Shown: piece by piece, positions 221 to 40,155 of the stretch
Numbering within the stretch: position 1 is the first letter of the stretch
How the letters are laid out: every line of letters starts with the position of its first letter
From: a virus
Taxonomy: Duplodnaviria > Caudoviricetes
IMG/VR virus record: IMGVR_UViG_3300025635_000051
Span: 1 to 40,155 of that record
Direction: 5' to 3' (one strand)
Length of the DNA: 40,155 bases
Made by a program: the position numbers and the translations under genes
The notes under the pieces: generated by a model
The model's database searches: none
Told to the model about the DNA's origin: nothing
The model's input: the letters and a program-made list of their open reading frames with translations, nothing else

Positions 221-444
221 TTTGTTTCTCCTGTTTCTTTTTCGTTGATAAGTGCCATCAGTTCTTCTTCTGTGTAACTAATCCATTTGGTTGCATCCAT
301 TGACAGTAAATCAAATTCAGACCAATCCAATATTTCACCAAATGATTTATTGCGAAACACAATCCAATAAAACGCTTCCAATCTTCCATCGCCCCAACTA
401 CGGTTGCAGCGATATCCGTGAATAATTCTTTGTAGTTTGTTCAT
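217..444 (-). CDS. Hypothetical early protein (MNKLQRIIHG...)
   Basis: In ORF 217-525; start chosen at the TAATG overlap with the upstream gene. Confidence 0.6.
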   Translation of the reverse strand: MNKLQRIIHGYRCNRSWGDGRLEAFYWIVFRNKSFGEILDWSEFDLLSMDATKWISYTEEELMALINEKETGETK

Positions 445-641
445 TATGACCATGCCTGTTCTGTGTCGCTGAAAGTGCGAATCAAACTTTGAGTTGCTTC
501 GCATTTCATTCTCCAACCACACCACTCATTCACACGAGCCGTGTCTTGCCACATTGGCAAACGGCGACGCTTGCGTCGTCGTTGTGCTTCTTCTCGTCGC
601 AAAGAAGTTGGTGTTGGTGCTGTATCTCTATGTTCTTTCAT
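444..641 (-). CDS. Hypothetical basic early protein (MKEHRDTAP...)
   Basis: ATG 641 preceded by AAGGAG. Confidence 0.6.
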   Translation of the reverse strand: MKEHRDTAPTPTSLRREEAQRRRKRRRLPMWQDTARVNEWCGWRMKCEATQSLIRTFSDTEQAWS

Positions 642-673
642 TATTGTTCTCCTTGTTTGTGTTGGTATATCTA

Positions 674-738
674 CCCAAACGGGTAATTGAGCCCACAAGT
701 TTCTATGTAGAAACTTGTGAACTCTCAACGCGTTTGAA
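674..738 (-). other. Long intergenic RNA hairpin capped by the 18-bp palindrome
   Basis: Perfect inverted repeat 694-719, extended by pairs that are G-U only on the - strand. Confidence 0.7.
698..715. promoter_or_regulatory. 18-bp palindrome AGTTTCTA-TG-TAGAAACT, copy 1
   Basis: Identical copies at 2068-2085 and 2119-2136; all intergenic. Confidence 0.75.
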
Positions 739-742
739 TTAA

Positions 743-916
743 CTACGAGTTAATCGCGCACTCCATATTGCCGAACTGTGCAGAGAACTGCATCTGTTTG
801 GCAATGAGTTCATCATCAAACACAGATGACAACATTTCTAACTGAGCGTCATCTGTAATGAGCGTCTCCAAGCGTGAATAGAACGCTTGATTGTATAGTG
901 CTGGTCTTTCTAACAT
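743..916 (-). CDS. Hypothetical early protein (MLERPALY...)
   Basis: ATG 916 with AAAGGA RBS, downstream of hammerhead 1. Confidence 0.65.
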   Translation of the reverse strand: MLERPALYNQAFYSRLETLITDDAQLEMLSSVFDDELIAKQMQFSAQFGNMECAINS

Positions 917-948
917 TGTCTTGTCCTTTGTTTGTATGTTTCTAACGA

Positions 949-1012
949 GCAAAGACTCATCAGACCTGTTTAATCAGGTGACACTCGCCTAAGCGAGTGT
1001 TTCTGTCTTCGC
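949..1012 (-). ncRNA. Hammerhead ribozyme type II (HH1; extra A before GAAA)
   Basis: - strand GCGAAGAC-A-GAAAC-ACUCGC(UUAG)GCGAGU-GUC-ACCUG(AUUAAA)CAGGU-CUGAUGA-GUCUUUGC: three stems plus conserved core. Confidence 0.8.
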
Positions 1013-1252
1013 ACTCTTTAATTTGCATTGAACCAAGAACTCATCGGTATCTGGAATTGCATAATTAAACAGAAATGCCATTTCGTATGCCAACATCAAC
1101 AACTCGTGGATTGCATTTGGCTCGCCTCCAGATTTCTCTACCCGAGAAGCAAATCCAATTTCCAATCTTCGTTTGATGTCTTTATTAGACCGAGCATCTT
1201 CTGTTTTGATTTTTTCTTGGATTAATGTTTTGTGTGTTTTGTTTGTAATCAT
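989..1252 (-). CDS. Hypothetical early protein
   Basis: 87-aa ORF in the early cluster; stop codon lies in HH1 loop III. Confidence 0.65.
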   Translation of the reverse strand: MITNKTHKTLIQEKIKTEDARSNKDIKRRLEIGFASRVEKSGGEPNAIHELLMLAYEMAFLFNYAIPDTDEFLVQCKLKSAKTETLA

Positions 1253-1274
1253 TGTTTCTTTCTAGCATTATCGG

Positions 1275-1334
1275 TTGATAATACTCTTTGACTCACGAGC
1301 AGGGGAGTGCTCGTGAATCGCAGACTGTTATCAA
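1275..1334 (-). other. Long imperfect intergenic RNA hairpin (RNase III-site-like)
   Basis: UUGAUAA/UUAUCAA base plus 12-bp GAUUCACGAGCA/UGCUCGUGAGUC upper stem with a U-G pair on the - strand. Confidence 0.65.
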
Positions 1335-1340
1335 ACAGTG

Positions 1341-1514
1341 TTAAGCGAATATCTCGCTTATGTTGCTGGATGTTGGGCAAATGATTGCTGTGTGTTCTTC
1401 AATTGCCTTGAGAATATTCTCTCGCTCAGCGACCCAAGCAGCATCGCCAAGTTCTAACTTGGTGAGAAGTTTGATTATTTCTCCCTTGGAATATTCTTTA
1501 TCTAACTCTGGCAT
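1341..1514 (-). CDS. Hypothetical early protein (MPELDKEY...)
   Basis: ATG 1514 with AAGGAG RBS, downstream of hammerhead 2. Confidence 0.7.
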   Translation of the reverse strand: MPELDKEYSKGEIIKLLTKLELGDAAWVAERENILKAIEEHTAIICPTSSNISEIFA

Positions 1515-1537
1515 TTGTTTATCTCCTTTTGTGTTCT

Positions 1538-1587
1538 GATGACTCATCAGTGCGCTTCGCGCAGACCCCTCACGGGGTTTCGTCATC
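1538..1587 (-). ncRNA. Hammerhead ribozyme type II (HH2; canonical core)
   Basis: - strand GAUGAC-GAAAC-CCC(GUGA)GGG-GUC-UGCGC(GAA)GCGCA-CUGAUGA-GUCAUC. Confidence 0.9.
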
Positions 1588-1598
1588 GGGACGAATTC

Positions 1599-2045
1599 TT
1601 ATTTAGATGCCTTACGAATTGCTTTCTGCGTAGCGATAGGCAAAGCCTTAAACGCTGGCGAAGCAAACAATTTCTTGAGGGCATCTTCTGGACTAAGCGC
1701 TACGGCTTTGCGAACAGTCTTCTTCTTTGGAATGCGTGAATACGCATCATCAAGATGAAGCAACTGATTGCTTTGGTATTTGGCTCGCAACGCTTTGGCT
1801 TTTGGTGAACTGCCGTCAATGAAAGCAGCGAAACGAATTGCCTTGCTAAGTTGCGCCTTGATGTTCTTGTCAGGGTTCGCCTTAATCAACGCTTGACGAG
1901 TGAAGTCAAGGTTGTGAATTGCGTAACCGATAAGATACCAAGTCTCCAACATACTTTTGTGTTGGAGAACCATTGCTTTCTCTGTGTTGAAGATTTGGTT
2001 CAACCAAGAGCAAGCCTGGCTTAGTGTTGTCTGTTTGTGTTTGAT
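1599..2045 (-). CDS. First early gene, basic hypothetical protein; start uncertain (ATC 2045 or TTG 2003)
   Basis: ORF 1599-2003 stays open upstream to an ATC placed 6 nt after AGAAGGAG. Confidence 0.65.
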   Translation of the reverse strand: MKHKQTTLSQACSWLNQIFNTEKAMVLQHKSMLETWYLIGYAIHNLDFTRQALIKANPDKNIKAQLSKAIRFAAFIDGSSPKAKALRAKYQSNQLLHLDDAYSRIPKKKTVRKAVALSPEDALKKLFASPAFKALPIATQKAIRKASK

Positions 2046-2067
2046 AACTTTCTCCTTCTGTTGTAGA

Positions 2068-2136
2068 AGTTTCTATGTAGAAACTAATCCTGCCTAACAA
2101 TTAGACAGGCGACTAAATAGTTTCTATGTAGAAACT
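2068..2136. promoter_or_regulatory. Tandem 18-bp palindromes (copies 2 and 3) in the early leader
   Basis: AGTTTCTATGTAGAAACT at 2068-2085 and 2119-2136. Confidence 0.75.
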
Positions 2137-2462
2137 ACTCACTCGTCTGCCTAAGTATTATTGAGAGACTAAAAAAGTAGAGAGCACGCTAAGAATTGCG
2201 TGCGAAATAAATTGTGAAACGCTGTTGCGTTATGACCTGCCCCCATACCTAGACACCAGCACAAAGCCCAACAACCAGCGTGTGCGAGCGCCCGAGACAT
2301 ATACCAAATACACGCCATATTGCGCCGTTGCGAACTCGCGCGCGCATTTGGCGCTCTTTGCGCCAGCACAGCACGAGGGGGGGCAGGGTGGGGGTGCGGC
2401 CCGTTGCGATTAATGGATGGTTTCGTCGCGTGTCCGTACAGACCATTTTTAAAAAATCTGTT

Positions 2463-2969: not shown

Positions 2970-3063
2970 GATGTTTTGGACCTTTCATCAGCTTGCCGTT
3001 AGGCATGCGATGAAAGCCTTTAGGCACTTTTTTAGAAGTTTGTTTCTTTTTTGTATGTGCCAT
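2962..3063 (-). CDS. 33-aa basic peptide MAHTKKKQTSKKVPKGFHRMPNGKLMKGPKHRG (not in ORF track)
   Basis: AAGGAG RBS; stop overlaps start of next gene. Confidence 0.65.
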   Translation of the reverse strand: MAHTKKKQTSKKVPKGFHRMPNGKLMKGPKHRG

Positions 3064-3168
3064 TACAGTATGCTCCTTAAACCCCGGCTTGTGTTGGCCT
3101 TAATCGCTGGCGCTTAGGGCGCCGCGATTAACAGCAACTGGGGAAACAGGGTTTTTCCGTTTCCCCCC

Positions 3169-3219: not shown

Positions 3220-3645
3220 GCAATAGAAGAAGCAACGCTCACAGTTGCACAACAAAATTATCTTGACTGGCTGTGCACCGCTCCCTCGGAGCGGGTGCCA
3301 GCCTCCAAAGCCAAGTACGCCATAGAACACCAAGTAGACGAAACCACCCTACGACGCTGGCAGAAAAAAGAAGTGTTCGTCAACGAATGGAAGAAACGGG
3401 TAGACGACATCCAAGGCTCACCAGAGCGTACACAAAAGCTTCTGGACACACTTTACAACAAAGCCCTAGAAGGTGACACCAAGTCAGCCCAGCTTTACCT
3501 ACAGGCCACCAACCGTATGTTGCCACCTACGGTAACGGTTAACTCTAATAAGAAGGCAACGGAGTTGTCCGACTCTGAGCTCGATGAACTCATTGGACAG
3601 ATTGCTGCCCATGAGAAGTCGCGACGTAATTTCAAGGTGGTGTAA
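3217..3645 (+). CDS. Terminase small subunit (HTH)
   Basis: HTH VDETTLRRWQK, ALEGDTKSAQLYL, C-terminal LSDSEL motif; first gene of the structural arm. Confidence 0.7.
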   Translation: MAIEEATLTVAQQNYLDWLCTAPSERVPASKAKYAIEHQVDETTLRRWQKKEVFVNEWKKRVDDIQGSPERTQKLLDTLYNKALEGDTKSAQLYLQATNRMLPPTVTVNSNKKATELSDSELDELIGQIAAHEKSRRNFKVV

Positions 3646-13805: not shown

Positions 13806-13819
13806 ATTTAATTCGTAAT

Positions 13820-13856
13820 TTGGGGTGTGCCGACCACCTTCCGCGGCATACCCCAA
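13820..13856 (+). terminator. Intergenic hairpin
   Basis: TTGGGGTGTGCCG...CGGCATACCCCAA; no U tract. Confidence 0.45.
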
Positions 13857-13878
13857 GTAACGAAAAGGACAACTATTG

Positions 13879-18440: not shown

Positions 18441-19652
18441 GTGGACCAGGAGCAGTTCAATTCCATAGTTGCGCAATTGCGCGGGCTTAATTCTTCTGGC
18501 ATTCTAAACACATCTGATTTGTCCATTTTGCAAAACGCCATTCTTGGCGTTTTGACAGACACATACACACCTGCTTATATTGGGAAAACGCCAGAACAGC
18601 TAATGGCTGATTATGCTCCCAATTTTTTTAATGCAGACCAAACAAACGACCCAATACTAAAAGATGTAGCAAGCGACATTTCTAAAGGTTACGACCTTTG
18701 GACCATTAAACAAAACTTAAAAGCCGTTTTGCAAAACGACCCAAACATCACAAGCGGTTCAGCCGAGGTGGATGATTACCTAAATCAAGCAGAGTTGTAT
18801 TATCGAGAATGGAATGCTTATCAAAAAGCTCAACGAGAAGATACTCAATTAAAAATTGAAAATGACCCATTCAGAAAAAGTGGTTTGCCAGGATTTGATG
18901 AAAGATATCAAGCAATTGATGTTTATGGTGACGCATTTAAAAAATTAGCAAAAGACTATGCTGCTCAACCCTACGAATCAAAACAAAAAAAATATCCACC
19001 TGGACAAAAACCTGGCAGTCCAATCGTTGACAAAACACAACCAATTCCTGCTTACACACCAAAACTAACAAAGGTTAATGCTCCGGAAGAATACGTAAAA
19101 ACTGCTGAAAAAAATGTTTCCGAAAAAGCCGACGAATTAACAAAAGCTAAAAAAGCTTTTGATGAATTTGTTGCAAAAAATCCAGATACGTACGATTTGG
19201 AATATCAAAGCTTGTTAGACGCATTGGATGCAGCAAGACAACGTTATTCCGAAAATGTTGCCGACACAGTTGGTTTTGTTGGTGCACCAAATACCAAAGA
19301 ATTAAAAACATCTGACATGATTGAGGCTTTGGCAAAAAGACAGGCTCAACAGGAAACTCAAAAAAATGTTCCTCGCCGTTATGCACAAGGAAGCACGGTG
19401 CCTATGTCAACCGTTCCTTTTGACGAGGCAAAAGCAAGACTTGCTGGCAATACGCCAGAACGAATGGCACGAGTCGCAGAAGCCATGGTTGCTTTATTGC
19501 AACCAAGAGTGGACGCTTCGGGTGCAACGCCACTAAAAGATGCTTTGATGAAACGTGGAATATTTAGTGCTGCTGCCGCTATTCCTAAATCGTCGGGTGC
19601 GTCTAAAAACTACACGGTTAAAGGTTCCAAAGTAGTTAAATTAGGCAAATAA
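18441..19652 (+). CDS. Putative internal virion protein
   Basis: 403-aa ORF coupled to the giant gene. Confidence 0.55.
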   Translation: MDQEQFNSIVAQLRGLNSSGILNTSDLSILQNAILGVLTDTYTPAYIGKTPEQLMADYAPNFFNADQTNDPILKDVASDISKGYDLWTIKQNLKAVLQNDPNITSGSAEVDDYLNQAELYYREWNAYQKAQREDTQLKIENDPFRKSGLPGFDERYQAIDVYGDAFKKLAKDYAAQPYESKQKKYPPGQKPGSPIVDKTQPIPAYTPKLTKVNAPEEYVKTAEKNVSEKADELTKAKKAFDEFVAKNPDTYDLEYQSLLDALDAARQRYSENVADTVGFVGAPNTKELKTSDMIEALAKRQAQQETQKNVPRRYAQGSTVPMSTVPFDEAKARLAGNTPERMARVAEAMVALLQPRVDASGATPLKDALMKRGIFSAAAAIPKSSGASKNYTVKGSKVVKLGK

Positions 19653-22600
19653 TGGCAACAAATGACAACAGTAGTCTCTACAAAAGATTAGCAGAACTTC
19701 AAGCTAATCGTCCGCAAAACGCGGTTGTGCCATCACAAAAAGCTGCGCTTAATTTTCGCGATGCAAAAATTAAAGCGTTACAAACCGCGCCAGGCCTAAC
19801 CGAAAGATTGCAACAAATTTCTAAAGGTGGACAACCAGCGCCAAGTGGCGCTTTGGGAACCATTGGCAATTTACTTGTTAATAATCCAATATCCAAAACT
19901 GTCTTGGGTGGATTATCCGCAATTGACATACCTCGTCGTTTGGTTATTTCTGGTATTAAAGAATTTAAAGACGCAGTAGATAATAATCCCAACACACAAG
20001 CATCTTTCAAAGATTATAAAGACCAAGTAGCAGACCCAAATTTTGGATTTGGCAGAGTTGTGCCTATGAGCGGTTGGGGCGGAAGAATAATTGGGTTAAT
20101 TGGAGACATTGCTCTTGACCCATTAACATACGCAACTCTTGGTGGAACAATTTCTAAAAAAGCAGTTACTCAAACAGGTAAAGGCGCAATTGAAAAATTT
20201 GCCACAGAGGCCGCAAAACGCTCGGATGAATTAGCTAATTTGGGTTTAGGTGGCGTTTCCGACACGGTCGTAAACGCTTTGCGCAAAACTTCAAAATATG
20301 AAGAAGCAATACCCACAAGAGAATTTTTGGGAACAAAATCTATTCAGGGTCGGCGTGGTTCGGAAGCTTTGGCTTCTGGTGCAAGAAAACTTGGTGCCAC
20401 CGATGCCGAAATAGCAGAAATTCTAAAACGAGGTCGTAATGGGCTAACCCCAGAAATGGCCAAATTGATGGGAATGAACGACTATGGAATTTATTATCTT
20501 GGCTCAAGAATACGTGTTCCTTTTAGTGGATACATAGGCAGGGGTCTTGCTTCAGGAATAACAAATGCTCGTTTAGGCATTTTGAACACAAGAGCTGGTG
20601 AATATCTTGGCAAGTTAATAACTCCGACCGGCACAGCAGCCAACTTGGATTTGCGCGACATTCGCTTTGCTGGCAGAGCTGGCAAATCAATGCCTGGCAA
20701 CCTAACACCCAAAATGGGTTTAGCCATTTTGGATGCAGATAATGCAGCCAGGGCGGCAAGAGGTGTTGCAGCCAGGGATGGGGCAAACATTGTTGCTCAA
20801 GCATTAAGCGACCCAGATGTGGTTGCTGAATCAAGCGTTATCTACAAATACCTAGACACCGACGTAATCCCAACAAACATTAGCGACAGACAGCGTCGAG
20901 CAATGCAAAAAATTAAAGACGCTACGGATAAGTTGTACGAAAACATTGATTCGTATGGAAGATTTGTTGCTGGCAACGAACCAAATGGTTTCGTAATTGC
21001 TGGTCGTCGCAAAAATTTCTTCCCTCACAAAATGACTGCTTCAGCACAGGATTTTGTTCAAAATAGTTCATCACAAAGAGCGATAGATGTTCGTCGGTAC
21101 ATGAAAGTTGACCATACAAATATTGGTGGTTCTTTTGAGTCGCGAAACCTTGAAGCGCTTGTTAATTCGGGCGAAAGCGTTGATTGGTTTGGAAAAATAC
21201 TTACACCCGAAGACATTGCTGGTGGCGTAGACAGGTTAAATGAACTCGCACGCTTGGGTGGGTTCAAAGGCGATTTTTTTGAAACAGATATTAGAAAAGC
21301 CCTTACTTCTTATTTGTCAAATTATGCGGAAGGTATTGGCACTATTGCCTTTTATCAAAACCTAAAAGAAAGCGGCAACGATATTGCCAGCATGGCTGTT
21401 CAGCGTGGCATGATTACCAAAGAGGCCCTTGAATCAATTTTAACGCAACCAGAACGAACCGCAAAAGCCGTCAAAACTGCTTACGAACTTGCTCGCAAAG
21501 AAATGTCGGATTTTGTTAACACGATTTCAAAAGAAGCGCAGTCTCAACTAAAAGAACAAACAAGATTAGCCAACCTAAGCCAAGAAGAAGTTGGAAAACT
21601 TCTTCTTGGTGGAACAGATGCAGAACAACTGATTGCACAAAAAACATTATCGGCAACCGAAGCAGATGCTGCCCTGCGAACCAAGACAGCAGAGAATGTT
21701 CAAAAAGCAATAGAAAAATTAAACAATGCCCGTGCGTTAATAGTTGAAAAACACGCAAAACACATGGCAATGTTTCAGGAACAATCTGTTCTTTTGGCAG
21801 AACAACAAGCACATCATCAGATTATTTTGGAGTCACTTGATTTAAGGCAGACAGCCTTAAATCAATATCTTGATGTGTTAACGCAGGCTTCAGAGGCACC
21901 TCCTGCGGAATATGTAAATAATTTGTTGAAGAATTTGCAAACAATGCAAGACGTTGTTGCCCAAAGTGCGGCCGAAATAGAACATAAATTTAATATTTTT
22001 ACAAGAGACTCTCTTGAGTTTTTAAATGATGCTCTATCTGATTTGTCAAACTATACAACGGTTGGCAACAAAAATGCTTCTCAAGTAATTACGGATTTAA
22101 AGAATCTTGCCAAGTTTGGTCAAATTCAAATTGGTCAAAATGTTAAATCTCGTGGCGGTCAAAAAGGCTTAAATTTTGACACAGTCATTAGACCATATTT
22201 GAACGCTACCGAAAAAGCAGTTCCAATTGGCAACCAAGAACAATGGAATGCTTGGGTTAAGTTAAAGAATCAACTTGAATTAGACACCATCACAAGAAGC
22301 AATCTTGAGAAAAAAACAATTGCTGATGTTCGTGAAACATTAGCCAGAGCAGCTACGTCCACCGACCCAACAGACCTAGGCGATGTGCGGGCAGCAATTA
22401 GTTGGTTGTTTGTGCGGGCTCAAGTAGATGACCCAAATTTTGCTAAAAATTTGTTAGACAACCCAACAGAAGAATATAAGGCAATTTTAAGAATTACAAA
22501 AAATGACGCTATTAGAAAAAAATACGGAATTATAAAAGTTGTTGAAGATAAACTTGATGGGTATGTTTTTACAAACATAAAAGAATTGCCTGCTGGCTTA

Positions 22601-25600
22601 AAACTTCCTGCTCAATGGTTGGTTATGGACAAACAAATTCGAGAGTTGGAAAGAAGGCTTTTAGCCGTTCCTGAACATTTGGCAAAAGTTCCAGATACTG
22701 GTTTGGGTGTAACAAATAGAGTTTATAGTTCTTTTGTAGACGTATTTGGTGATTACAACCAATCGCAAATATTAAAACCAGAAGGTTACGATGCGGTCAT
22801 TAACCACCTAAAGCAATTAAATGCCGACAATGGAATTGTCGGTTTGGAAGATTATATTAAGCAATTAGAAACGGCAAAAAACAATCCTGGCGCCCAAATT
22901 TCTTTGGGCGAATTATCTGATGACATCCAAGAACGTTTTGCGGCTGCTGAAAGCCGCATCAAAATAACAGACAATCGTTTAAGCAATAATGAGTTGAGTT
23001 TTTATGAATCAAAAACTCAACCCAACCTTCCTTTAAGAAACAGAATCATTGAAAAACAAAAAGCAATGATTAAAGAACGTGATGAGTTGATTCAAAAACA
23101 AAACAAATTAACAAGCAGGTTGCCAAAAGACACGTTGGACGAAATTAACTTTTTGGTTAACTCGGGTGGACAAAATCCAGCATTTGGTTATCAAAACCCA
23201 ATTGATATATCCCAGGGTTCAATGGAGCTTGCAAAAGCGGCAATGAATTTTTATATAAAAGAAGAATCTAAATACGTTCTTAGAATGGCAAATGAACTTT
23301 TGGGTGCAAGTGGAAGAACGTTGACACCACAGGGTCATGCTCGCATGACTCACGAAATTTATGAAACCTTTGCAAGAACGGCAACTGAACACGTAGATTC
23401 ATTGGAAAGGGCAAAAAATTTACTTGAACCAATTGCCGAAGAAGTTGTTGCCTCTGGAAGAAACGCAGAAGAAATGCAACTGCTTCTTCTTGAAAAACTT
23501 AGGGCAATAATGAACAACCCTGACGAACGAGAAGTTCTTCAGGAAATATTTCCAAATTTAGTTCTCAATTTGGAATTAAAGAAATTGTCCGACATTAAAA
23601 CGTACCTTGCTTCTGATTTGCAATATCAAAATATTGTCAACAGCATAGCCGACATCGAAGTTAGGGCTTTCCCTGTTTCGCAAATGAGCAATCTTGGCGG
23701 CGCTGGAGTTATTGATTTTAGGACAATAGCTGACCCTGTGATGGCAGCAAAAATGGAAACAAGTCGTCGTGCGCAAGAATCGGTTCTTGGTTCGGAAGGT
23801 TTGCAAAAATCTAAGATTTTGCAAAACCTTGCGAACAAAGGTCACGAAGGATACAAAACTTATTTAACCAATTTGAAAAAAAGAATTTTGGGCACCAAGA
23901 CATTTGGTGACGAACTAAAGAAACAACTTTCTTATGACATAGATGTTCAGATGAGTCTTCTTGATGAACACTATTCAAAGGTGGCCAAAGAACTAGAAGA
24001 AGCCAAACAGTTGGCAAAAGAAACAGCTACCGCACAACGAAAAGAAATTAAAAAATTGTCAGCTCGTATGTCTGGGCCGCAAAGAATTAAAGAACTGCAA
24101 AAACAAACAAGGGCTTTTGGAAAACGTCGTGACGATGCTGGTTATTTTGCTTATCAAGCAGACAGCATAGACCGCTATATCAACGACGCATTAAACAGCA
24201 ACATTAATTCAACACGGGCTATTAAAGAGTTGTTTGGGGCTTTATTTGGTGGGGAAAGATACGCAACACCTACGTTGCGTGGTTCGGAAGCTGCGCGTTT
24301 GTCTGGTTCCGGCACATTGAGTCTTCGTGTACAGAAACAAGAAGACTCATTTTTTTACAGAAACCTCAAGAATGCAAAAAGCATGCGCGATGAACTTAGG
24401 GTGCGAACCTATTCTTCTAACCCAGAAGAAGCGCAAATTTTAAGACAAAGAAAAGAATATGTAGATTATCTACAACAAACCTTGGACGATTTGGAACAAA
24501 TGATAAAGGCTAAACCAGAAGCCGCCAAGGCGTTAAAACAAGCAACCAAAGAACTCGATGCTGCGGAAAAACAAATTGCACAAGTCAATGGAGTCCCTTT
24601 GTCTTACGAAGAACGCATGGCTTACATTGACCATGTTCGGTTTGCTTTTGGAGAAATTAAACCACGCGAACGCGTGTTTAATTTGAACACACGACAATGG
24701 GAGTTTAAGAGAATAAAAAACGCTGACAGACCAGAATTGAAACCAATTCCAGAAGGCGCTTTTACCCCTGACGAAGCAAATTTAGTTAAAAAATATATTG
24801 ATGCAAAAACAAAACATCAACAATTTATTGAAACAGAAGAATACGGCATGGCCGCCCGAGAAGAATCTTTAATGAAATTCAAGAGAGAATTGGCTGCTGC
24901 TGATTTGTCTAAAATTACTTGGACCGTAACTGGAGACACATCAAATGCGGAATCTTGGACACCTCAACTTAATAAAATTATTTCTAATAGCATTGCTAGC
25001 GACCCAACGAATCTTCCATTTGATGCCCAACAAGTAATTTTGCAAAACCCCCTAAAGGGAGGTGTTGCAAAATTGCCTGACCCATTTAATAAAGATTTGC
25101 CAAAATTAATTAATCGAATGTCGGACCCAACTCAACCTGAGTTGATTTTCTTAGATGCAAACAATAATCAAATCCAGTTAAGGGTTGCTCGAGATGCCGA
25201 AGGCAAATCTTTGGGTTACTTAGAGAAATTGCAAATCAAAACAAGACAAGAAGCACCCGTAGCAGAAACTGCACCTGGAGGCGTAACCAAAGAACGCAGA
25301 TATGTTCCGCAACCAAGAATAGACCCAAATACGGGACAACCAGTACCAAACGAATTTGATTGGGTGATGGAATATACCAAGGCGGAAATACCTGCTGCTG
25401 GGCCAGCTGCACAAACAATTCGTCAAAAAACAATTTACGAACGTGTGTGGGAACCCTGGAATTTCAACATGGAAAGACTGAGCGTAATTGAGCCTGCATC
25501 CGTAATTGTAGAAGACGGACAAAAAGCTTCTAGGAAAACAATAACAACAGCAGAAAAATTTAACCCAGACGATGCTTGGGTTCCAATTGTAAAAACTAAC

Positions 25601-28600
25601 GACCCTGATTTGATATTGGATAGTCCAACACAATATGTGCGTATGTCTGCGTTTACCGGAACAATGGGTAGCGAAAAATCATTTATTCAACTCCCAGACA
25701 GCATGGGTGGTGGAAACTTTATGTTTACACCACCAGAGCAAGAAGCCTTGTTTACTGATTTTCTTTCGGATTACTACAGGCGTAATGCAACATATTTTTC
25801 AAGGCCATCAGCTTTTGTTGCTGAAGTAAAACGCCGAGAACAACAAATTGCTGGAGTCGCTCAACAGATTAAAAAATCCTATGACGATTTGGGCAGAAAA
25901 CAAAATTTAGCGTTGGGCAAAGTTTACACTAGCAAGTACGATAAAAAAGTAGCTGAATCCTTGAAGGCGGATTTGGAATTGTTGCAAAATGATTTAAACG
26001 AATTTTTGCGCTCAAAAGAAGTTTGGGATTCTCGTGCATCTGCTAACAAAAAAGTTGCTTTTTTGTATAACTTCTTTGATTCCACTGAAAGCAGAACAAG
26101 CAAAATAAGAATAACGCCAGACTTTGTTGATGAAATTACGGAAACAGGAATGGGTTCACCCAGCAACGTTCTTTCTGGCGTAACTGGCAATAAGCCCTAT
26201 ACGAGACTTCAGAAATACATTGAAGAACAAAACGTAGTTGATGATTTGGATAATTCTGTAAAGGTCTCTAAAGAAACAGCAAGCGAAAGACGCAAAATTA
26301 TTAATGGTTCTTGGGTGGGAACGCCAGAAGAAGCATTAATCACAAAAGCCAGCAATATGGTGTCTGATGTCAACGGCATAATGATGACCTATGGGCAAAG
26401 CACAGAACAGTTGTTGGCAAGATTATTGTCAACACGCGCTAGATACGACAGCGTTATTAAGATGGACGGCCTTAAAGCAGAAATGCAAAAGGCTGTGTTG
26501 GCAAAACAGCTGCAACAATCTGGGGTGATTAGTCCAGAAGCAACAGACATTACCGTATCTACACTCCGCAAGGGTGTTGCTCAAGAAACAGCAACGGCTG
26601 AACAGGCTTTGAATGCTGGCCCATTTGTGCAAGATTTGCCAGGCCGTCAGCCTATGGCTGACGAACTGGCTGGACAACAGGCTGCTTACAATCCACCACA
26701 GGTAGTGCGCAAAGAAATTGATGCTGCTGCTCAAAAGAAATCTGATTCGTTTGGGATGGAGACGGCGCCCCCAGGTGTTGGGTTTGCTGGTGAGGTTGCG
26801 CAAATTGAAAGTCTTCAATTTGCAAAAGAATTAGAACAAGAGGTTGCTTGGATTCAGGCCATTCAACTAAAAGAACAAAACGTCAAAACAGCAATGGCTG
26901 GTGCTGTTAGAGAAGAAGTCAAAGAAATTGATAAAGAAACAAAATTGTTGGCTCAATCTGAAAAAGAGTTAGCAAAAATAAACAAGAAACAAACCGATGC
27001 GCTTCGTGGAATTTCCAAACTTGGAAATGTCACAAAAGAAGAAACAGCGTTGGAAAATGCTAGACGGGCTTATGACGCTGCACAAATAGCAACTACACCC
27101 GAAGATGTAAACATTGCAATGCAGAAGATTATTGAAATTGACAATGTACTAAAATCTTCAGCCAGAGTTAGGGCTGCAATTAAGGGTATTAAAGGCAAGG
27201 AAGGTTACGATGCTTTTGTTACAGAGTTCCAAATGTTTGTTGACGAAGCAACAAAATTTGCTCAAATTGCCATCAACCCATCAGTTGATAAAAACATTCG
27301 TGACCAAGCTTCAAAATGGATTCTTGCCAACACAGAGTATTACAAACAAGTAGCAATTTTGAATTCGCAAGAACACATAGCGCGAATTGCAAATGGTCTA
27401 ACTAAGTCGTCTTACCTGAAAGAAACTGTAGGCAAAGACGGGAAAGTTAGACAAGAACTTGTGGAGGGTGTGCAGGTTCCAAAAGATAGTAGATTGAACT
27501 ACTTTGTTGATACCGATTTTGTTACTTCGTTTGACGAAGGAATGGTTCAATTAAGCAAGCAATTCCCAACAACTCAAGTGGCCCCGCAAATAGCCGAGTT
27601 TGTCAAAAACGTACACAGGTTGCAGGAACCAGCAATAGCAAGAGAGCTAAATATGTTTCTTGGTAAATACACAAGATTCTTTAAGGCTTACGCAACCTTG
27701 AGTCCTGGCTTTCACGTTCGCAACTCTATATCCAACGGCTTCATGTTGTTTGCCGCTGGAGGTAGTCCAAGGTATTTGATGGAAGGTTTGCAGATGTCAA
27801 GAAGCCTTAATGAAGCTTCTCGTGCTGGCAAAAGCGTAGAACAATGGCTTCAAAGTTTGCCTGTTGCGAAAAGGGCAAAAGCCGAAATTGCCGTAAGGGC
27901 AAGTTTTGCTTCTGGCGGCGGTAACGCAGCTGACAACTTGCGTCAACTGTACATGTCTGGTCGTTTGATAAACAATCCACTTACTCGTGGCAGCAAAGGT
28001 TTGGGACAATGGATTGAAGGACATTCGCGATTCATGTTGGCCTACGACGGGGCTATGCAGGGAATGGACTTCAATACTTCTGCGGCGAGAGTTCAGCGTT
28101 TCTTAATTGACTACGAAGATTTGTCTACCTTAGACAAATCTTTGCGTCAAATAATTCCGTTTTGGATGTGGACATCACGAAACCTTCCAATGCAAATACA
28201 AAATATTTGGTTGAATCCTCGTGCTTACCAAATCTATGGAAACACTAAACGTAATTTCAGGGACGACAAAGAAGGCGAAATCGTGCCTGCTTGGATGCAA
28301 GAAATGGGTGCTTGGAAACTTCCTTTTGGTCGCAATATATACGCAACGCCAGATATTGGTTTTAACAGAATCCAGGCAGATGTTAATATGTTGCAAGACC
28401 CAGCAAGATTTTTGTCAAACGTAAACCCATTGGTTCGTTTGCCAATTGAATTAACTGGAGAAAGACAACTGTTTAGCAATAAACGTTTCTCGCAAACTCC
28501 GGTCGAGGTTACTGGTGGTGTTGGCGCTGCGCTACAACCATTAATGGAATTATTGGGATATGGGGAAACTGGTGCGGGTGGAAGAAAATTTGTTGACGAC

Positions 28601-28834
28601 AAAGCATATTATGCTTTGCGTAACCTGATTCCTTTGTTGAGCAGGGCTGAGTCTTTGAATCCGTCAATACCAACTGACCCAGGCACATCAATGGTGAATC
28701 CGTTGCTTGGCTTGGTTGGTGCGCCAATTAAAGAAGTCAACCAACAAATGCAAGATAACGAATTGTTGAGAAGGCTGTACGACATGCAGGAAATTGCTAA
28801 ACGGGACAAAGCAATAAACAACCCAGAGGGATAG
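19652..28834 (+). CDS. Giant 3060-aa putative DNA-ejection/internal virion protein
   Basis: Uninterrupted ORF; DIALDPLTY near the N-terminus and PGFHVRN...IIPFWMW near the C-terminus, as in large podophage internal proteins. Confidence 0.65.
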   Translation: MATNDNSSLYKRLAELQANRPQNAVVPSQKAALNFRDAKIKALQTAPGLTERLQQISKGGQPAPSGALGTIGNLLVNNPISKTVLGGLSAIDIPRRLVISGIKEFKDAVDNNPNTQASFKDYKDQVADPNFGFGRVVPMSGWGGRIIGLIGDIALDPLTYATLGGTISKKAVTQTGKGAIEKFATEAAKRSDELANLGLGGVSDTVVNALRKTSKYEEAIPTREFLGTKSIQGRRGSEALASGARKLGATDAEIAEILKRGRNGLTPEMAKLMGMNDYGIYYLGSRIRVPFSGYIGRGLASGITNARLGILNTRAGEYLGKLITPTGTAANLDLRDIRFAGRAGKSMPGNLTPKMGLAILDADNAARAARGVAARDGANIVAQALSDPDVVAESSVIYKYLDTDVIPTNISDRQRRAMQKIKDATDKLYENIDSYGRFVAGNEPNGFVIAGRRKNFFPHKMTASAQDFVQNSSSQRAIDVRRYMKVDHTNIGGSFESRNLEALVNSGESVDWFGKILTPEDIAGGVDRLNELARLGGFKGDFFETDIRKALTSYLSNYAEGIGTIAFYQNLKESGNDIASMAVQRGMITKEALESILTQPERTAKAVKTAYELARKEMSDFVNTISKEAQSQLKEQTRLANLSQEEVGKLLLGGTDAEQLIAQKTLSATEADAALRTKTAENVQKAIEKLNNARALIVEKHAKHMAMFQEQSVLLAEQQAHHQIILESLDLRQTALNQYLDVLTQASEAPPAEYVNNLLKNLQTMQDVVAQSAAEIEHKFNIFTRDSLEFLNDALSDLSNYTTVGNKNASQVITDLKNLAKFGQIQIGQNVKSRGGQKGLNFDTVIRPYLNATEKAVPIGNQEQWNAWVKLKNQLELDTITRSNLEKKTIADVRETLARAATSTDPTDLGDVRAAISWLFVRAQVDDPNFAKNLLDNPTEEYKAILRITKNDAIRKKYGIIKVVEDKLDGYVFTNIKELPAGLKLPAQWLVMDKQIRELERRLLAVPEHLAKVPDTGLGVTNRVYSSFVDVFGDYNQSQILKPEGYDAVINHLKQLNADNGIVGLEDYIKQLETAKNNPGAQISLGELSDDIQERFAAAESRIKITDNRLSNNELSFYESKTQPNLPLRNRIIEKQKAMIKERDELIQKQNKLTSRLPKDTLDEINFLVNSGGQNPAFGYQNPIDISQGSMELAKAAMNFYIKEESKYVLRMANELLGASGRTLTPQGHARMTHEIYETFARTATEHVDSLERAKNLLEPIAEEVVASGRNAEEMQLLLLEKLRAIMNNPDEREVLQEIFPNLVLNLELKKLSDIKTYLASDLQYQNIVNSIADIEVRAFPVSQMSNLGGAGVIDFRTIADPVMAAKMETSRRAQESVLGSEGLQKSKILQNLANKGHEGYKTYLTNLKKRILGTKTFGDELKKQLSYDIDVQMSLLDEHYSKVAKELEEAKQLAKETATAQRKEIKKLSARMSGPQRIKELQKQTRAFGKRRDDAGYFAYQADSIDRYINDALNSNINSTRAIKELFGALFGGERYATPTLRGSEAARLSGSGTLSLRVQKQEDSFFYRNLKNAKSMRDELRVRTYSSNPEEAQILRQRKEYVDYLQQTLDDLEQMIKAKPEAAKALKQATKELDAAEKQIAQVNGVPLSYEERMAYIDHVRFAFGEIKPRERVFNLNTRQWEFKRIKNADRPELKPIPEGAFTPDEANLVKKYIDAKTKHQQFIETEEYGMAAREESLMKFKRELAAADLSKITWTVTGDTSNAESWTPQLNKIISNSIASDPTNLPFDAQQVILQNPLKGGVAKLPDPFNKDLPKLINRMSDPTQPELIFLDANNNQIQLRVARDAEGKSLGYLEKLQIKTRQEAPVAETAPGGVTKERRYVPQPRIDPNTGQPVPNEFDWVMEYTKAEIPAAGPAAQTIRQKTIYERVWEPWNFNMERLSVIEPASVIVEDGQKASRKTITTAEKFNPDDAWVPIVKTNDPDLILDSPTQYVRMSAFTGTMGSEKSFIQLPDSMGGGNFMFTPPEQEALFTDFLSDYYRRNATYFSRPSAFVAEVKRREQQIAGVAQQIKKSYDDLGRKQNLALGKVYTSKYDKKVAESLKADLELLQNDLNEFLRSKEVWDSRASANKKVAFLYNFFDSTESRTSKIRITPDFVDEITETGMGSPSNVLSGVTGNKPYTRLQKYIEEQNVVDDLDNSVKVSKETASERRKIINGSWVGTPEEALITKASNMVSDVNGIMMTYGQSTEQLLARLLSTRARYDSVIKMDGLKAEMQKAVLAKQLQQSGVISPEATDITVSTLRKGVAQETATAEQALNAGPFVQDLPGRQPMADELAGQQAAYNPPQVVRKEIDAAAQKKSDSFGMETAPPGVGFAGEVAQIESLQFAKELEQEVAWIQAIQLKEQNVKTAMAGAVREEVKEIDKETKLLAQSEKELAKINKKQTDALRGISKLGNVTKEETALENARRAYDAAQIATTPEDVNIAMQKIIEIDNVLKSSARVRAAIKGIKGKEGYDAFVTEFQMFVDEATKFAQIAINPSVDKNIRDQASKWILANTEYYKQVAILNSQEHIARIANGLTKSSYLKETVGKDGKVRQELVEGVQVPKDSRLNYFVDTDFVTSFDEGMVQLSKQFPTTQVAPQIAEFVKNVHRLQEPAIARELNMFLGKYTRFFKAYATLSPGFHVRNSISNGFMLFAAGGSPRYLMEGLQMSRSLNEASRAGKSVEQWLQSLPVAKRAKAEIAVRASFASGGGNAADNLRQLYMSGRLINNPLTRGSKGLGQWIEGHSRFMLAYDGAMQGMDFNTSAARVQRFLIDYEDLSTLDKSLRQIIPFWMWTSRNLPMQIQNIWLNPRAYQIYGNTKRNFRDDKEGEIVPAWMQEMGAWKLPFGRNIYATPDIGFNRIQADVNMLQDPARFLSNVNPLVRLPIELTGERQLFSNKRFSQTPVEVTGGVGAALQPLMELLGYGETGAGGRKFVDDKAYYALRNLIPLLSRAESLNPSIPTDPGTSMVNPLLGLVGAPIKEVNQQMQDNELLRRLYDMQEIAKRDKAINNPEG

Positions 28835-30064: not shown

Positions 30065-30227
30065 GCTTTTTTTTCTTGTTGTGAACGTACAAACAATTTG
30101 TCTGTAAACCGTTTTCAAGAACTCCCCGACCAACATCAATCGGCCCATAGTGTTTCTCCAGTATTGCTGCAATCTCTGTCGCTGTAACGGGCATTTCAAA
30201 TCCAATCACTAACTGACTCGTTCGCAT
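30054..30227 (-). CDS. 57-aa hypothetical protein MRTSQLVIGFE... (not in ORF track)
   Basis: AGGAG RBS; fills the gap. Confidence 0.55.
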   Translation of the reverse strand: MRTSQLVIGFEMPVTATEIAAILEKHYGPIDVGRGVLENGLQTNCLYVHNKKKKHVK

Positions 30228-31044
30228 AATTCTCTCCTAATTCCAAATTGAATGTTTCGTCGTTAATCATCAAAGCTATTACACAATAGCCAACTATGTC
30301 CCGTAGCGTATCAAGCAACGATTCGTTTTGTGCTTTGGATTTTTTGGATTTAAGGTTGATGAGTCGTTCTACTTTGTCGGACAAACGCACAAGAACACCT
30401 TTGAGTCCAAAGGCTGTTATGTTGCCGTGTCCATAATCGTGTTGTTTGGATGCAAGCAGGCTACACATTTTGCCAGAGTCCCAAGCGTTGCGCATACGCA
30501 ACTCTTGGATTGCCTCAATGCCCATCTCTGTCCACAGCAAAGAAACAGGAACGTCGTCTTGGTCAAAAAGACAAACTCGAGCAACGTGAATTATTCTTTG
30601 TAGTTTTTCAGGAGAGACTTCTTGTTCTTCTGTTGCGAATGATGCAATGTGCATAACCCATTGGCTTGCTGATTGTTCCCATGTGTTGACCACTCTGACC
30701 TTCTTTCTGATTAGCGGGTGCATTGTTAATAGCTGTTGTAGTTTAGCATAAGCATTGTTCTTGAGTCGCCAGGCGTGAGGTTTGGAAACGCCAAGGCGTT
30801 TACCAAGCTGTTCGTAAGACAGGAACTCGCTGTTGACTGCGTTGATAATGAACTGGTCTTGCTCATCAAGTTGTTCAATGCACATCGCTACTGCTTCGCG
30901 TAGCGGTTGTAGTTCTTCTACTGATTCTTCTATTACGTCCGACACAGAAAGCATTAATGCTTCCATCGCCGTCTGTGGGCGTTGCTTACTTAGATAGGTT
31001 GATGAAAAGACGTAATTGTCTTGGGGTATGTCATTCTTTGACAT
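30196..31044 (-). CDS. Sigma-70 region 4-like HTH fused to a DUF1599/Nmad1-like (MazG-like) domain
   Basis: LDEQDQFII...LSYEQLGKRLGVSKPHAWRLKNNAYAKL; KQHDYG...VRLSDKVERL...ESLLDTLRDIVGY. Confidence 0.7.
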   Translation of the reverse strand: MSKNDIPQDNYVFSSTYLSKQRPQTAMEALMLSVSDVIEESVEELQPLREAVAMCIEQLDEQDQFIINAVNSEFLSYEQLGKRLGVSKPHAWRLKNNAYAKLQQLLTMHPLIRKKVRVVNTWEQSASQWVMHIASFATEEQEVSPEKLQRIIHVARVCLFDQDDVPVSLLWTEMGIEAIQELRMRNAWDSGKMCSLLASKQHDYGHGNITAFGLKGVLVRLSDKVERLINLKSKKSKAQNESLLDTLRDIVGYCVIALMINDETFNLELGENYANESVSDWI

Positions 31045-31459
31045 CGTCGTATGCGGGGTCATAGAGGAGTTGTGAAACTTCCTCTGGCGACAACAAATAA
31101 CCCTTCGCTGGATTATTTGTGCCTTCCGCAAACAACCTAATTCTTGACTTTGGTAACATTTCTATATAACGCTTTAATCTTTCTGTGGACACTACCACCA
31201 TTGCTTGGTTCATAGTATACACATAGACCCACCACTCTGCCTCGGTTATCATAAGCCCCGAAGGCTTCCACCCATGTTTACGGGGGTTTTGGGCTGTTTC
31301 AACCACCATCTTGCCGTTGCGATACCGGTCAGACTTGACCTCAAACGAACCATTAACAATTCCTTGCAGGAATTGTTTGACCTGTTCTTCGCCCTGTTTG
31401 CCGAACTCTAAATCTTTTTGAAAGTTTGGTTTGGGAATATCCCATCTGGACTCTTTCAT
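31031..31459 (-). CDS. Restriction-endonuclease-like fold protein
   Basis: GKQGE, FEVKSD, VVE, PSGL..T.AEWW motifs. Confidence 0.55.
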   Translation of the reverse strand: MKESRWDIPKPNFQKDLEFGKQGEEQVKQFLQGIVNGSFEVKSDRYRNGKMVVETAQNPRKHGWKPSGLMITEAEWWVYVYTMNQAMVVVSTERLKRYIEMLPKSRIRLFAEGTNNPAKGYLLSPEEVSQLLYDPAYDDVKE

Positions 31460-37551: not shown

Positions 37552-37679
37552 TTCTTACCACCTCCTGCCAGTTTGATTTCGTATGCAGTTAGTTCGGCTA
37601 GTGTTTTCTCCCAGCCGATATCCCTGCGTTTAACTTTGCGTCGCATCTTTTTGCGACGCTTGTGATTCAACTTGCTCAT
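37548..37679 (-). CDS. 43-aa basic peptide MSKLNHKRRKKMRRK...
   Basis: GGAGG RBS; ATGA overlaps on both sides. Confidence 0.55.
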   Translation of the reverse strand: MSKLNHKRRKKMRRKVKRRDIGWEKTLAELTAYEIKLAGGGKK

Positions 37680-38677: not shown

Positions 38678-39799
38678 TTATTCTTCTCCATCTACCGAAG
38701 TTTCGGTTGGTGTGTGTGGGTCAACGAATACGCCACGGCTTACTGCACGAGCAATAAACTGTGAATACTTGTCCCGGTCTGTAATTGCGAACTCACCGAG
38801 CGACTGAAAGGATGCGAGCGCATTCTCTTTGACAACTTGGTTGTATGTAACTTGGTCTGTGTAGTCAAACAGACATTGCACGAACTCAATAGACGCTTGA
38901 ACTGTCTCTGGTCGCAATGACGGTCTGAAGAAACGCAACTCAAGTGTGTGCCGATTGTTGCGATTGAGTGCGAGATAGCGCTCATTCGCATACGGCGCAA
39001 TTGGATTACCTTTCTTGGTGCGACCTTTAGCAATTTCTGCGAGCGTGGGTGTTACATACACGCTATTGCCGTTGTCGTCATCGCCGTCATAAGCAGTTCC
39101 GAGGAATGATTCACGGTCAAACTTTGACCAATGTGAATCACGACCTGCGAAGTGCTTGATATTCGCAATGTGCAGTTCTTGCGCATTGCGTCGTATCTCA
39201 GACGCACGAGACACATCGCTACCGTAGATGAACCACATGAACTTGTGCATGTGTGCTTCATTCAAGAACGCATTACGCGAAATATGAATGTGCAAACCAC
39301 AAGTGCTGGTAGTCCAAGCACGGAAGCCCTTGCGACGCAAGCGTGTGAGACCGTCCCACAATGGTTCTGCGTGGTTCTTGACATAACCGAAACTCATCGG
39401 ATGCGTAACAATCTCGAAGCCGTTGTTGAGTGAACCGTCATGCTTGCAATAGACCAAGCCATTGCACATATCGGTAATTAACTCAGCGCCTTCGGATGGA
39501 TACGCACTGGACATCGCTTCTGTTTCTATCTCAATGCCAAAGTAAATCTTTGGCATAGAACCGATAAGAACTTGTTGTGAAGACTTACGACCATTGTCGT
39601 TAAAGAACAACGGGTTTGGGCGATAGTCGTGGTCTGAAATATATTCAGAGTCCGACTCTCGCTGTTCTTCCTCTAAGCGATATTCATAACAACCATCGCA
39701 GAGAGAATCACCCGAGTGACTGTTCTCGTATCCCTCCTCAATCTCAGTGCCACAGGCGTCGCACTCTAGATAGGATTCTTCTTCTGATTCGGTGGGCAT
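38678..39799 (-). CDS. Putative amidoligase (COOH-NH2 ligase type 2)
   Basis: FGIEIE, DGSL..GFEIVTHP, CGLHIH, RY.ALN, TLELR; N-terminal CxxC...CxxC. Confidence 0.85.
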   Translation of the reverse strand: MPTESEEESYLECDACGTEIEEGYENSHSGDSLCDGCYEYRLEEEQRESDSEYISDHDYRPNPLFFNDNGRKSSQQVLIGSMPKIYFGIEIETEAMSSAYPSEGAELITDMCNGLVYCKHDGSLNNGFEIVTHPMSFGYVKNHAEPLWDGLTRLRRKGFRAWTTSTCGLHIHISRNAFLNEAHMHKFMWFIYGSDVSRASEIRRNAQELHIANIKHFAGRDSHWSKFDRESFLGTAYDGDDDNGNSVYVTPTLAEIAKGRTKKGNPIAPYANERYLALNRNNRHTLELRFFRPSLRPETVQASIEFVQCLFDYTDQVTYNQVVKENALASFQSLGEFAITDRDKYSQFIARAVSRGVFVDPHTPTETSVDGEE

Positions 39800-39829: not shown

Positions 39830-39869
39830 AACTGAGAGATGTCTCTCAGTTTCTACTCTTATGAGTATA
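39830..39869 (-). promoter_or_regulatory. Possible -10 (TATACT) followed by a perfect 22-bp palindrome, upstream of the amidoligase
   Basis: AACTGAGAGA-TG-TCTCTCAGTT at 39830-39851; TATACT at 39869-39864. Confidence 0.45.
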
Positions 39870-39909
39870 TCGCATCACACGAGTGTTTCCACCCGTGGAA
39901 TGCAGATAC

Positions 39910-40155
39910 TCACGAGATTCTGTTTCTGTTATTCCATTCGTCTGCTGTTTCGTATTTGTTTTCCGACAATGACGCAAATATGTTTTTGTTGTTCACAGTT
40001 ATGTGTTGGCTAACTTCCACCACATTGTTTGTTACATCACCCAAACATTTAATCATTTCGGCAAGTCGTTCTTCGAGAAGAACCATTTCCCATTTGTCAA
40101 AGTGTTCGCCACTAAAACAATGTTTCAGGACTTCGTTTATGTGTTTGTGCAAACC
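39910..40155 (-). CDS. 3' part of the junction-spanning gene starting at 220
   Basis: Frame continuous through the terminal repeat. Confidence 0.8.
   Translation of the reverse strand, partial: GLHKHINEVLKHCFSGEHFDKWEMVLLEERLAEMIKCLGDVTNNVVEVSQHITVNNKNIFASLSENKYETADEWNNRNRIS
40014..40155. repeat. Terminal direct repeat, right copy
   Basis: Matches 1-142 with one mismatch. Confidence 0.95.

Follow-up and report, generated by a model that had tools for sequence, protein, structure and literature searches.

How does a phage turn one early RNA into separate messages for a string of small genes, and does the chemistry of each cut matter? The question arises from a window of 40,155 bases, the whole of virus record IMGVR_UViG_3300025635_000051 (Caudoviricetes), in which hammerhead ribozymes and long hairpins lie at the junctions between consecutive genes of the minus strand. 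The original prediction had placed two hammerheads (HH1 and HH2) and three hairpins (HPa, HPb and HPd) there, and our pattern scan, folding and z-scores agree with its coordinates. Comparison with related loci showed the structures, selection on the transcribed strand and a second fold in every element, and also that elements are swapped and duplicated along with genes. Judged by sequence, the array is real, is under RNA-level selection and is a variant of known phage mRNA processing. We consider it probable that its junctions are interchangeable two-state RNA modules, which would cut a polycistronic RNA and then refold into a 5' stem-loop on the next message. Two-state folds, an extra A in HH1, a further hairpin (HPe) and repeated palindromes at hairpin tips go beyond what had been predicted. 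The ends of the window overlap by 142 nucleotides (nt), so the minus-strand early region runs past position 1 into the window's far end. In order of transcription, the array reads as follows:

2094..2160, minus strand: HPa, a hairpin of about 28 base pairs (bp) with three 1x1 mismatches, given as 2154-2101 in the original prediction
1599..2045, minus strand: gene 1, a basic protein of no known family with a probable AUC start; candidate palindrome binder
1538..1587, minus strand: HH2, a canonical type II hammerhead with its predicted cut at 1564/1563
1341..1514, minus strand: gene 2, 57 amino acids (aa), no family
1272..1337, minus strand: HPb, a hairpin of about 23-25 bp with internal loops and a pyrimidine loop
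989..1252, minus strand: gene 3, 87 aa, no family; its final codons cross the 5' half of HH1 and it stops at the stem III loop
949..1012, minus strand: HH1, a type II hammerhead of doubtful activity in which an additional A (1004) separates C11.1 from G12; its predicted cut is at 980/979
743..916, minus strand: gene 4, 57 aa, no family
671..739, minus strand: HPd, a hairpin with a constant base, a 1x4 internal loop and an exchangeable palindromic tip
444..641, minus strand: gene 5, 65 aa, no family
39856..39917, minus strand: HPe, in the same array through the terminal overlap, with a GNRA loop in most variants

We compared this array with about 50 related loci from viral and metagenome scans. 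Of the 99 metagenome loci 43 were kept; 54 lacked the HPb 5' arm and were left out, as were L158 (poor fold) and L222 (taken as the window's own contig). HH2 has stems I, II and III of 5, 6 and 4 bp, with stem II open, an intact CUGAUGA and GAAA core and a GUC site. Core positions C3-A9, G12-A14, A15.1-U16.1 and H17 are all as expected, and the three stems are backed by covariation. HH1 has stems of 5, 8 and 7 bp, the GUC site and an otherwise intact core, except that G12 does not directly follow Y11.1, the extra A being present in 16 of 16 copies compared. By its sequence, HH1 is a core variant and not a canonical type II member. Only these two elements match the hammerhead pattern in the window, and none of 40 resampled genomes matches at these stem lengths. 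An Rfam hammerhead search, proposed as a check in the original prediction, made no call: neither element reached the gathering score, the best match being a partial Hammerhead_3 (24.7 versus 48.5 bits), and for HH2 this is explained by a type III model that cannot span the type II permutation. More broadly, no Rfam family (RAGATH and others) reached its gathering score in the window or in 14 related loci.

Hammerheads of canonical spacing were found in relatives as 17 distinct sequences in 24 copies. GAAA, GUC and C[U/C]GANGA are preserved in all 17, whose stems I, II and III vary in pairs, and a few of the relatives' hammerheads carry U4C or a bulge in stem II. HH1 is nearly invariant: its 11 distinct sequences contain one compensatory change (stem II), and the other changes fall mostly in loops and outer stem II. 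A pattern allowing the extra A gave 50 viral matches, three of which fold as such a hammerhead, all from close relatives. HH2 is very probably active as a ribozyme; for HH1, useful activity seems a little short of an even prospect.

The long hairpins also fold better than expected by chance. On the minus strand, segments 2160-2095, 1340-1270 and 742-670 have z-scores of -7.6, -5.9 and -7.7, and none of 200 shuffles folds as well. G-U pairs had been offered as a sign that all three fold in the mRNA. The argument stands for HPa and HPd, where the minus strand folds better than the plus strand by 10.8 and 5.1 kcal/mol; for HPb the difference is only 0.6 kcal/mol, so there it rests on relatives. 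G-U pairs are more frequent in the sense than in the antisense strand in 12/12 HPe, 5/5 HPa (3-4 versus 1-2) and 27/28 HPd variants. Aligned HPb sequences have 97.3% of cells paired, and 10 of 23 pairs have changed on both sides. The corresponding values are 98.7% and 4 of 26 for HPe, in which nine further pairs change on one side only and still pair through G-U, and 96.7% and 10 of 28 for HPd, six of the ten lying within the swapped tip. That one-sided changes in HPb, HPd and HPe stay paired through G-U on the transcribed strand indicates that selection acts on the RNA. Covariation, another check that had been suggested, is thus present as paired stem changes in the canonical hammerheads and in HPb, HPd and HPe.

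To what extent is the alternation of ribozymes and hairpins a rule? It holds across the five junctions of the window, as one of 10 possible orders for two ribozymes and three hairpins, and stops beyond them: the next two junctions have no element, and then comes HPe. Among 25 loci spanning gene 1 to HPd or HPe, 5 alternate, 12 have only HPb and then HPd with no hammerhead, and 8 have other orders (our scan pattern missed HPb in L070, whose true order is R,R,b,d; the tallies are unaffected). The slot after gene 1 holds a hammerhead in 12 of the 25 loci and HPb in 13, and the gene 4 family sits after HH1, HPb or a U4C hammerhead, depending on the phage. The original prediction had seen design in alternating end chemistries. 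A functional role for strict alternation, leaving 5'-OH and 5'-P ends by turns, fits the five alternating loci, the window included; with 20 of the 25 not alternating, 12 without any hammerhead and one gene 4 family following different elements in different phages, it is largely refuted, and we give it scarcely any credence.

Elements also move as units. Duplicated HPb copies flank inserted genes in L184, L202, L236 and L067, and in L225 HPb adjoins HH1 with no gene between them. More distant phages (L076, L079-L082 and L115) lack hammerheads and carry similarly built hairpins; a scan of 79 of the 80 amidoligase loci retrieved found good hammerheads in three close ones only, with three poor matches elsewhere. 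On these comparisons the array is modular, its elements swap and duplicate like cassettes, and alternation is one outcome among many. That a hammerhead and a hairpin can replace each other in one slot points to a common function. Together with covariation and the conserved 3' hairpins described below, this interchange upholds, in qualified form, the proposal of an early polycistronic RNA with hammerheads and RNA-level hairpins, probably cut by ribozyme and host nuclease. The duplicated HPb copies, the HPb-HH1 junction and the mosaic orders would equally suit elements that persist mainly as cassette recombination boundaries with marginal RNA activity, like the PeSLs of T4-type phages, for which shuffling has been published (PMC2839356). 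However, compensatory and G-U changes point to selection on RNA structure in one strand, and the catalytic cores are kept, so that we find this explanation very unlikely; gene shuffling as such is compatible with two-state modules.

The newly described property of the array is that every element has, in its sequence, a mutually exclusive second fold, whose stem-loop immediately precedes the leader of the following gene. All 33 distinct hammerhead contexts allow the CUGANGA core to base-pair with the tail and the 3' strand of stem II. The pairing is kept where the core varies, and the predicted 3' product has two hairpins first and then an open A/C-rich leader. The 3' arms of the long hairpins form an alternative hairpin of at least 5 bp in 26/26 HPb, 13/13 HPd, 6/6 HPe and 3/3 HPa variants. 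In all 48 distinct arms this hairpin excludes the lower stem and begins at the 3' side of the internal loop; compensatory changes are seen, and 41 of the 48 beat 95% of tail shuffles. In the window the second folds are:

2089..2109, minus strand: alternative 9-bp hairpin of the HPa 3' arm, in 3/3 variants and showing compensatory substitutions in L153; predicted to cap the gene 1 mRNA at its 5' end after a cut near 2110
1536..1550, minus strand: 3' alternative hairpin of HH2, in which the CUGAUG core pairs with the tail and the 3' strand of stem II
1264..1285, minus strand: alternative 9-bp hairpin of the HPb 3' arm, in 26/26 variants; predicted cut near 1286
941..964, minus strand: 3' alternative hairpin of HH1, the core paired with the tail over 9-10 bp
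671..686, minus strand: alternative hairpin of the HPd 3' arm, in 13/13 variants; predicted cut near 687
39854-39867, minus strand: alternative hairpin of the HPe 3' arm, in 6/6 variants; predicted cut near 39868

U4C hammerheads, some with a stem II bulge, were observed at L072:4747-4811, at L242:9-73, in L168 near transcript position 3150 and in L243. Their 3' alternative hairpin follows the core change, and they are possibly detuned ribozymes.

A second fold in the 3' arm is useful only if the arm is freed, and we therefore read the hairpins as candidate cut sites. Substrates of RNase III span about two turns of RNA helix, and the long hairpins have this length, are intergenic and lie on the transcribed strand. 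That the long hairpins are cut appears likely. Cutting by RNase III is the slightly favoured option; the host enzyme is suggested by analogy with T7. No RNase III domain was found in the phage proteins, and Corynebacterium glutamicum has one. By inspection, a YAC/GUG pair triplet lies 7-8 nt above the predicted cut in HPb, HPd and HPe, three of the four hairpin families, and is a possible nuclease recognition register.

Hairpins that remained uncut could instead be U-less terminators, pause sites or 3' exonuclease barriers that grade the early mRNA, with cleavage left to the hammerheads alone. Terminators with weak U-tracts are described in actinobacteria, and one RNA contig passes through most of HPe. 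Yet the stems are 23-30 bp long, with internal loops and no U-tract (none was found on the minus strand at HPb or HPd, and a terminator-type match at 2109-2089 corresponds to HPa's alternative hairpin and has a broken tail). Transcription would have no promoter consensus from which to restart, as no sigma-70-like promoter was found on the minus strand of 1-2700; moreover, the conserved second fold needs a freed 3' arm, and the hairpins occupy hammerhead slots. We judge this account improbable. It is more doubtful still that the hairpins are ribosome-driven folding switches, coupling the translation of neighbours or exposing a site for RNase E or J with no part for RNase III. They start a few bases past stop codons and both HPd arms have alternative folds, as such switches might, but the ribosome-binding site is outside both folds in most variants, and switching would neither expose nor hide it.

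The position of the hairpins in ribozyme slots, near amidoligase and glutamine amidotransferase genes, raises a further alternative, in which one or more hairpin families are unrecognized self-cleaving ribozymes. Three ribozyme classes were found by looking near ribozyme-associated genes (PMC6765202), and HPd has a long invariant stretch. The families are, however, four unrelated unbranched sequences that share no unpaired core and have no Rfam match, and we consider this highly improbable. Cutting followed by refolding accommodates both kinds of element, and we return to it below.

When would the hammerheads cut? HH2 has a second competing structure on its 5' side:

1579..1595, minus strand: hairpin blocking HH2 on its 5' side; it begins 4 nt past the stop codon of gene 1 and pairs the stem II 5' strand and G12-A13

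In 16 of 19 canonical hammerhead contexts, the stem II 5' strand and GAA pair upstream in such a blocking hairpin. A stop codon lies 16-17 nt before GAAA in all 14 contexts with an upstream open reading frame (ORF) call, the other five having no ORF, and a stem II substitution in L228 has its compensating change in each of the two folds. In energy models the inactive fold is dominant for HH2, so that either HH2 is mostly off or, in keeping with the length of a ribosome's footprint, a terminating ribosome opens the blocking hairpin. In 7 of 14 HH1 contexts the gene 3 reading frame extends across the 5' half of the element, and its translation would hinder HH1 folding. These arrangements are consistent with translation-gated hammerhead cleavage, a proposal that we put forward tentatively.

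Under the preferred reading of cut-and-refold modules, host polymerase would make a single long early RNA. HH2 would cleave at 1564/1563, likely once a ribosome stopping on gene 1 opens the hairpin at 1595-1579. HH1 would be slow or conditional, given its extra A and the translation of gene 3 through it. For the hairpins, the cut would fall to the 3' side of the internal loop (near 2110, 1286, 687 and 39868) and would probably be made by host RNase III. Each 3' product would then consist of a stem-loop, an unpaired A/C-rich leader and a ribosome-binding site; the stem-loop at its 5' end is proposed to protect each gene's RNA, allowing it to decay independently. Recombination between repeated modules would shuffle the genes. 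Separately, a DNA layer may be superimposed, in which the HPa and HPd tips and two solo palindromes are likely operators and the gene 1 product is the candidate binder. These sites are:

2119..2136, no strand assigned: type-A palindrome in the HPa tip, likely a DNA operator
2068..2085, no strand assigned: solo type-A palindrome just before the gene 1 ribosome-binding site
698..715, no strand assigned: type-A palindrome in the HPd tip
39830..39851, no strand assigned: type-B palindrome before the amidoligase gene

The same 18-bp palindrome thus occurs three times in the genome, in the HPa tip, the HPd tip and the solo site before gene 1. Relatives have different palindromes at the HPd tip, each recurring 3-6 times in its own genome. 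Palindrome centres are free (CA/TA/TG), and mismatches in the arms comprise 3 G-U, 4 A-C and 9 others, with no preference for G-U (3/16). As expected of operators, they are repeated dyads with fixed arms, a free centre and no RNA-strand bias, and from sequence we conclude that they behave as DNA dyads. Some distant relatives have palindromic repeats without a loop. The site flanking gene 1 follows the gene 1 type, a match for which linkage would be a sufficient explanation. For the HPd tip, which several cassettes separate from gene 1, the types agree in 17 of 24 loci (permuted mean 5.0), or in 12 of 18 distinct ones (permuted mean 3.6). Whether the palindromes are operators bound by the gene 1 product is, on this association, evenly balanced. 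In seven distant loci (L088, L094, L107, L115, L118, L121 and L135), the early region ahead of the amidoligase gene has 2-4 copies of a palindrome peculiar to each; of the seven, only L115 yielded a gene 1 homologue. We rejected integron attC sites as an explanation of the palindromes, which have an AAC start and a GTT end and lie at stop codons: they are far too short, and no integrase was annotated.

Gene 1 itself has an apparent AUC start six bases after a strong AAGGAG (2043-2057, minus strand). AUC is the start in seven of eight type-A homologues examined, and AUG in the eighth. A gene 1 homologue is predicted to be all-helical; a homodimer prediction for gene 1 scored 0.09. Searches gave no convincing Pfam, PHROG, PDB or viral-structure match. 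In the fold search the best Z was 4.6; KorB, Spo0J and SopB appeared at Z 3.0-3.5 (root-mean-square deviation 3.0-5.1, 67-82 residues), and the ParB-type DNA-binding domains among the matches were all below Z 5. A joint reading can be drawn from both layers: hammerheads and hairpins would be two chemistries of one 'cut-and-cap' module, the hammerheads would stay off until the upstream ribosome terminates, and operators in the hairpin tips, specific to the allele, would be the targets of small early repressors from a new family (gene 1, with its AUC start), with which a phage silences its own early array and those of its relatives. As a whole, we regard this as speculative and rather unlikely.

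Evidence from RNA consists of assembled contigs only, whose ends cannot map RNA ends. In RNA runs X1 and X2, contigs stop on both sides of HH2 (gaps 1542-1584 and 1534-1589), and the listed pieces are about the size of single genes, none bridging HH2, HPb, HH1 or HPd. In run X10, whose kind is not on record, a contig bridges HH2 and HH1 and passes through HPb to its 5' edge. We take the gaps at HH2 in X1 and X2 as a weak hint of cleavage.

A number of observations weigh against the mechanism and its DNA layer. One X1 contig covers the HPe loop and 3' arm and reaches 39901, beyond the predicted cut, and a contig from RNA run X9 bridges HH2. X1 contigs also break within coding DNA (three gaps in 3.5 kb), and X1 and X2 come from the same year and habitat. 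When 30 nt of upstream sequence are included, the active fold makes up only 0.6% of the modelled HH2 ensemble, and 30 nt of flank at either end lower this to 0.002%, shares so small that HH2 could be largely inactive. The core of HH1 deviates from the consensus, and the scarcity of variation in HH1 may reflect recent ancestry. Loop I of the HH2 family is 3-4 nt long and variable, and by inspection we saw neither conserved pairing with the stem II tail nor a conserved loop I pseudoknot in either hammerhead family. RNase III sites have no reliable consensus, even in E. coli (PMC5371410). Gene 1 is without a family or fold match, and hhalign finds just a weak connection between its type A and the other types (probability 15%, E 0.002). 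For the palindrome that precedes the amidoligase gene, agreement with the gene 1 type is limited to 7 of 16 loci, and the window itself combines type B at this site with a type-A gene 1. Finally, the related loci are not independent, which inflates all counts.

How new is such an array? The claim of an undescribed system does not hold in full. Prophage type II hammerheads that flank single genes have been reported, three arrays were cleaved in vitro, and single-gene mRNAs were proposed (Perreault 2011; PMC3088659). The array shares with these the type II form, the intergenic position between small phage genes and the proposed product. It differs in that hammerheads share slots with long hairpins, anti-ribozyme folds are conserved and no pseudoknot was seen, although a pseudoknot between loop I and the stem II tail is present in most type II hammerheads. 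The HH1 insertion before G12 is not among the variants given in the paper's text (C3U/G8A, A6C, A6a, U13a, U15.1-A16.1, U10.1-U11.1 and 2a/2b). For hammerhead/hairpin interchange or the HH1 insertion we found no open-access paper, a search that did not cover subscription journals, and Figure 5 or Dataset S1 of Perreault may hold the variant.

In T7, RNase III sites are intergenic hairpins with internal loops, cut once on the 3' side. Host RNase III cuts T7 polycistronic transcripts at specific sites (PMC6938266). The array resembles T7 in having a polycistronic RNA with intergenic hairpins as predicted host RNase III sites. Unlike T7, it has a probable actinobacterial host, ribozymes mixed in, a conserved alternative 3'-arm hairpin and operator-like tips, no phage RNA polymerase was found in the window, and cleavage here is predicted. 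The PeSLs of T4-type phages (Arbiol et al. 2010; PMC2839356) are likewise repeated intergenic elements that mediate gene shuffling in a variable early region; they combine a promoter with a terminator stem-loop, whereas the array elements have neither consensus and resemble cleavage sites. The palindromes recall two kinds of site in actinophages, the stoperators of mycobacteriophage Cluster A and, in Cluster O, 17-bp palindromic repeats whose arms are fixed and whose centre is free (PMC5712189, PMC4351075): all are phage-specific repeated sites and largely intergenic. The sites in this study differ in their number (3-6 copies seen), in lying in the early and middle region and within RNA hairpin tips, and in being exchanged with gene 1 alleles; unlike stoperators, they are symmetric.

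The role of bacterial and phage self-cleaving ribozymes has been called largely elusive (PMC6765202). Natural swaps between hammerhead and hairpin with one shared predicted product suggest that the cut and the protected 5' end matter, and not the chemistry. The conserved blocking hairpin at a stop codon would constitute a natural translation-gated hammerhead, and the pairs of palindrome and gene 1 possibly represent an uncharacterized repressor family in aquatic actinophages.

The rest of the window places the array in its genome. It encodes a terminase, a P22/SU10-like portal and capsid, a DnaB helicase, WhiB and an amidoligase/glutamine amidotransferase pair. The phage is podovirus-like, and its host is probably an actinobacterium, as indicated by WhiB; a genome search with the amidoligase as query returned six distant loci and no host. 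No family was found for any of the six small early genes scanned. After the array come two larger genes:

38678..39799, minus strand: Amidoligase_2 gene (PF12224), after the array
37676-38677: GATase_4 gene, next after the Amidoligase_2 gene

A 3060-aa protein (19652-28834, plus strand) without a PHROG match is probably an internal virion protein; we had considered it as an RNA polymerase, with the hairpins as N4-type promoters, and rejected this when no polymerase motifs were found. The minus strand at 30196-31131 encodes a protein with a sigma-70 region 4-like part and a DUF1599 domain. Upstream of the array, 2184-2460 is non-coding, with C-runs, a strong hairpin, a site resembling a terminator (2203-2184) and a motif that relatives retain; it is likely a genome end or packaging region with the early promoter. 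A hammerhead-like stem III look-alike near 2444-2415 was discarded, its core being absent and the sequence not kept in relatives. Another phage (L022) has two near-identical type I hammerheads 400 nt apart (minus strand, 3037-3089 and 3440-3492), one of them U4C. Outside the early array, the window has long hairpins at 3082-3151 (minus strand), in the gap ahead of the small terminase, and at 13812-13865 (plus strand), 3' of the capsid gene.

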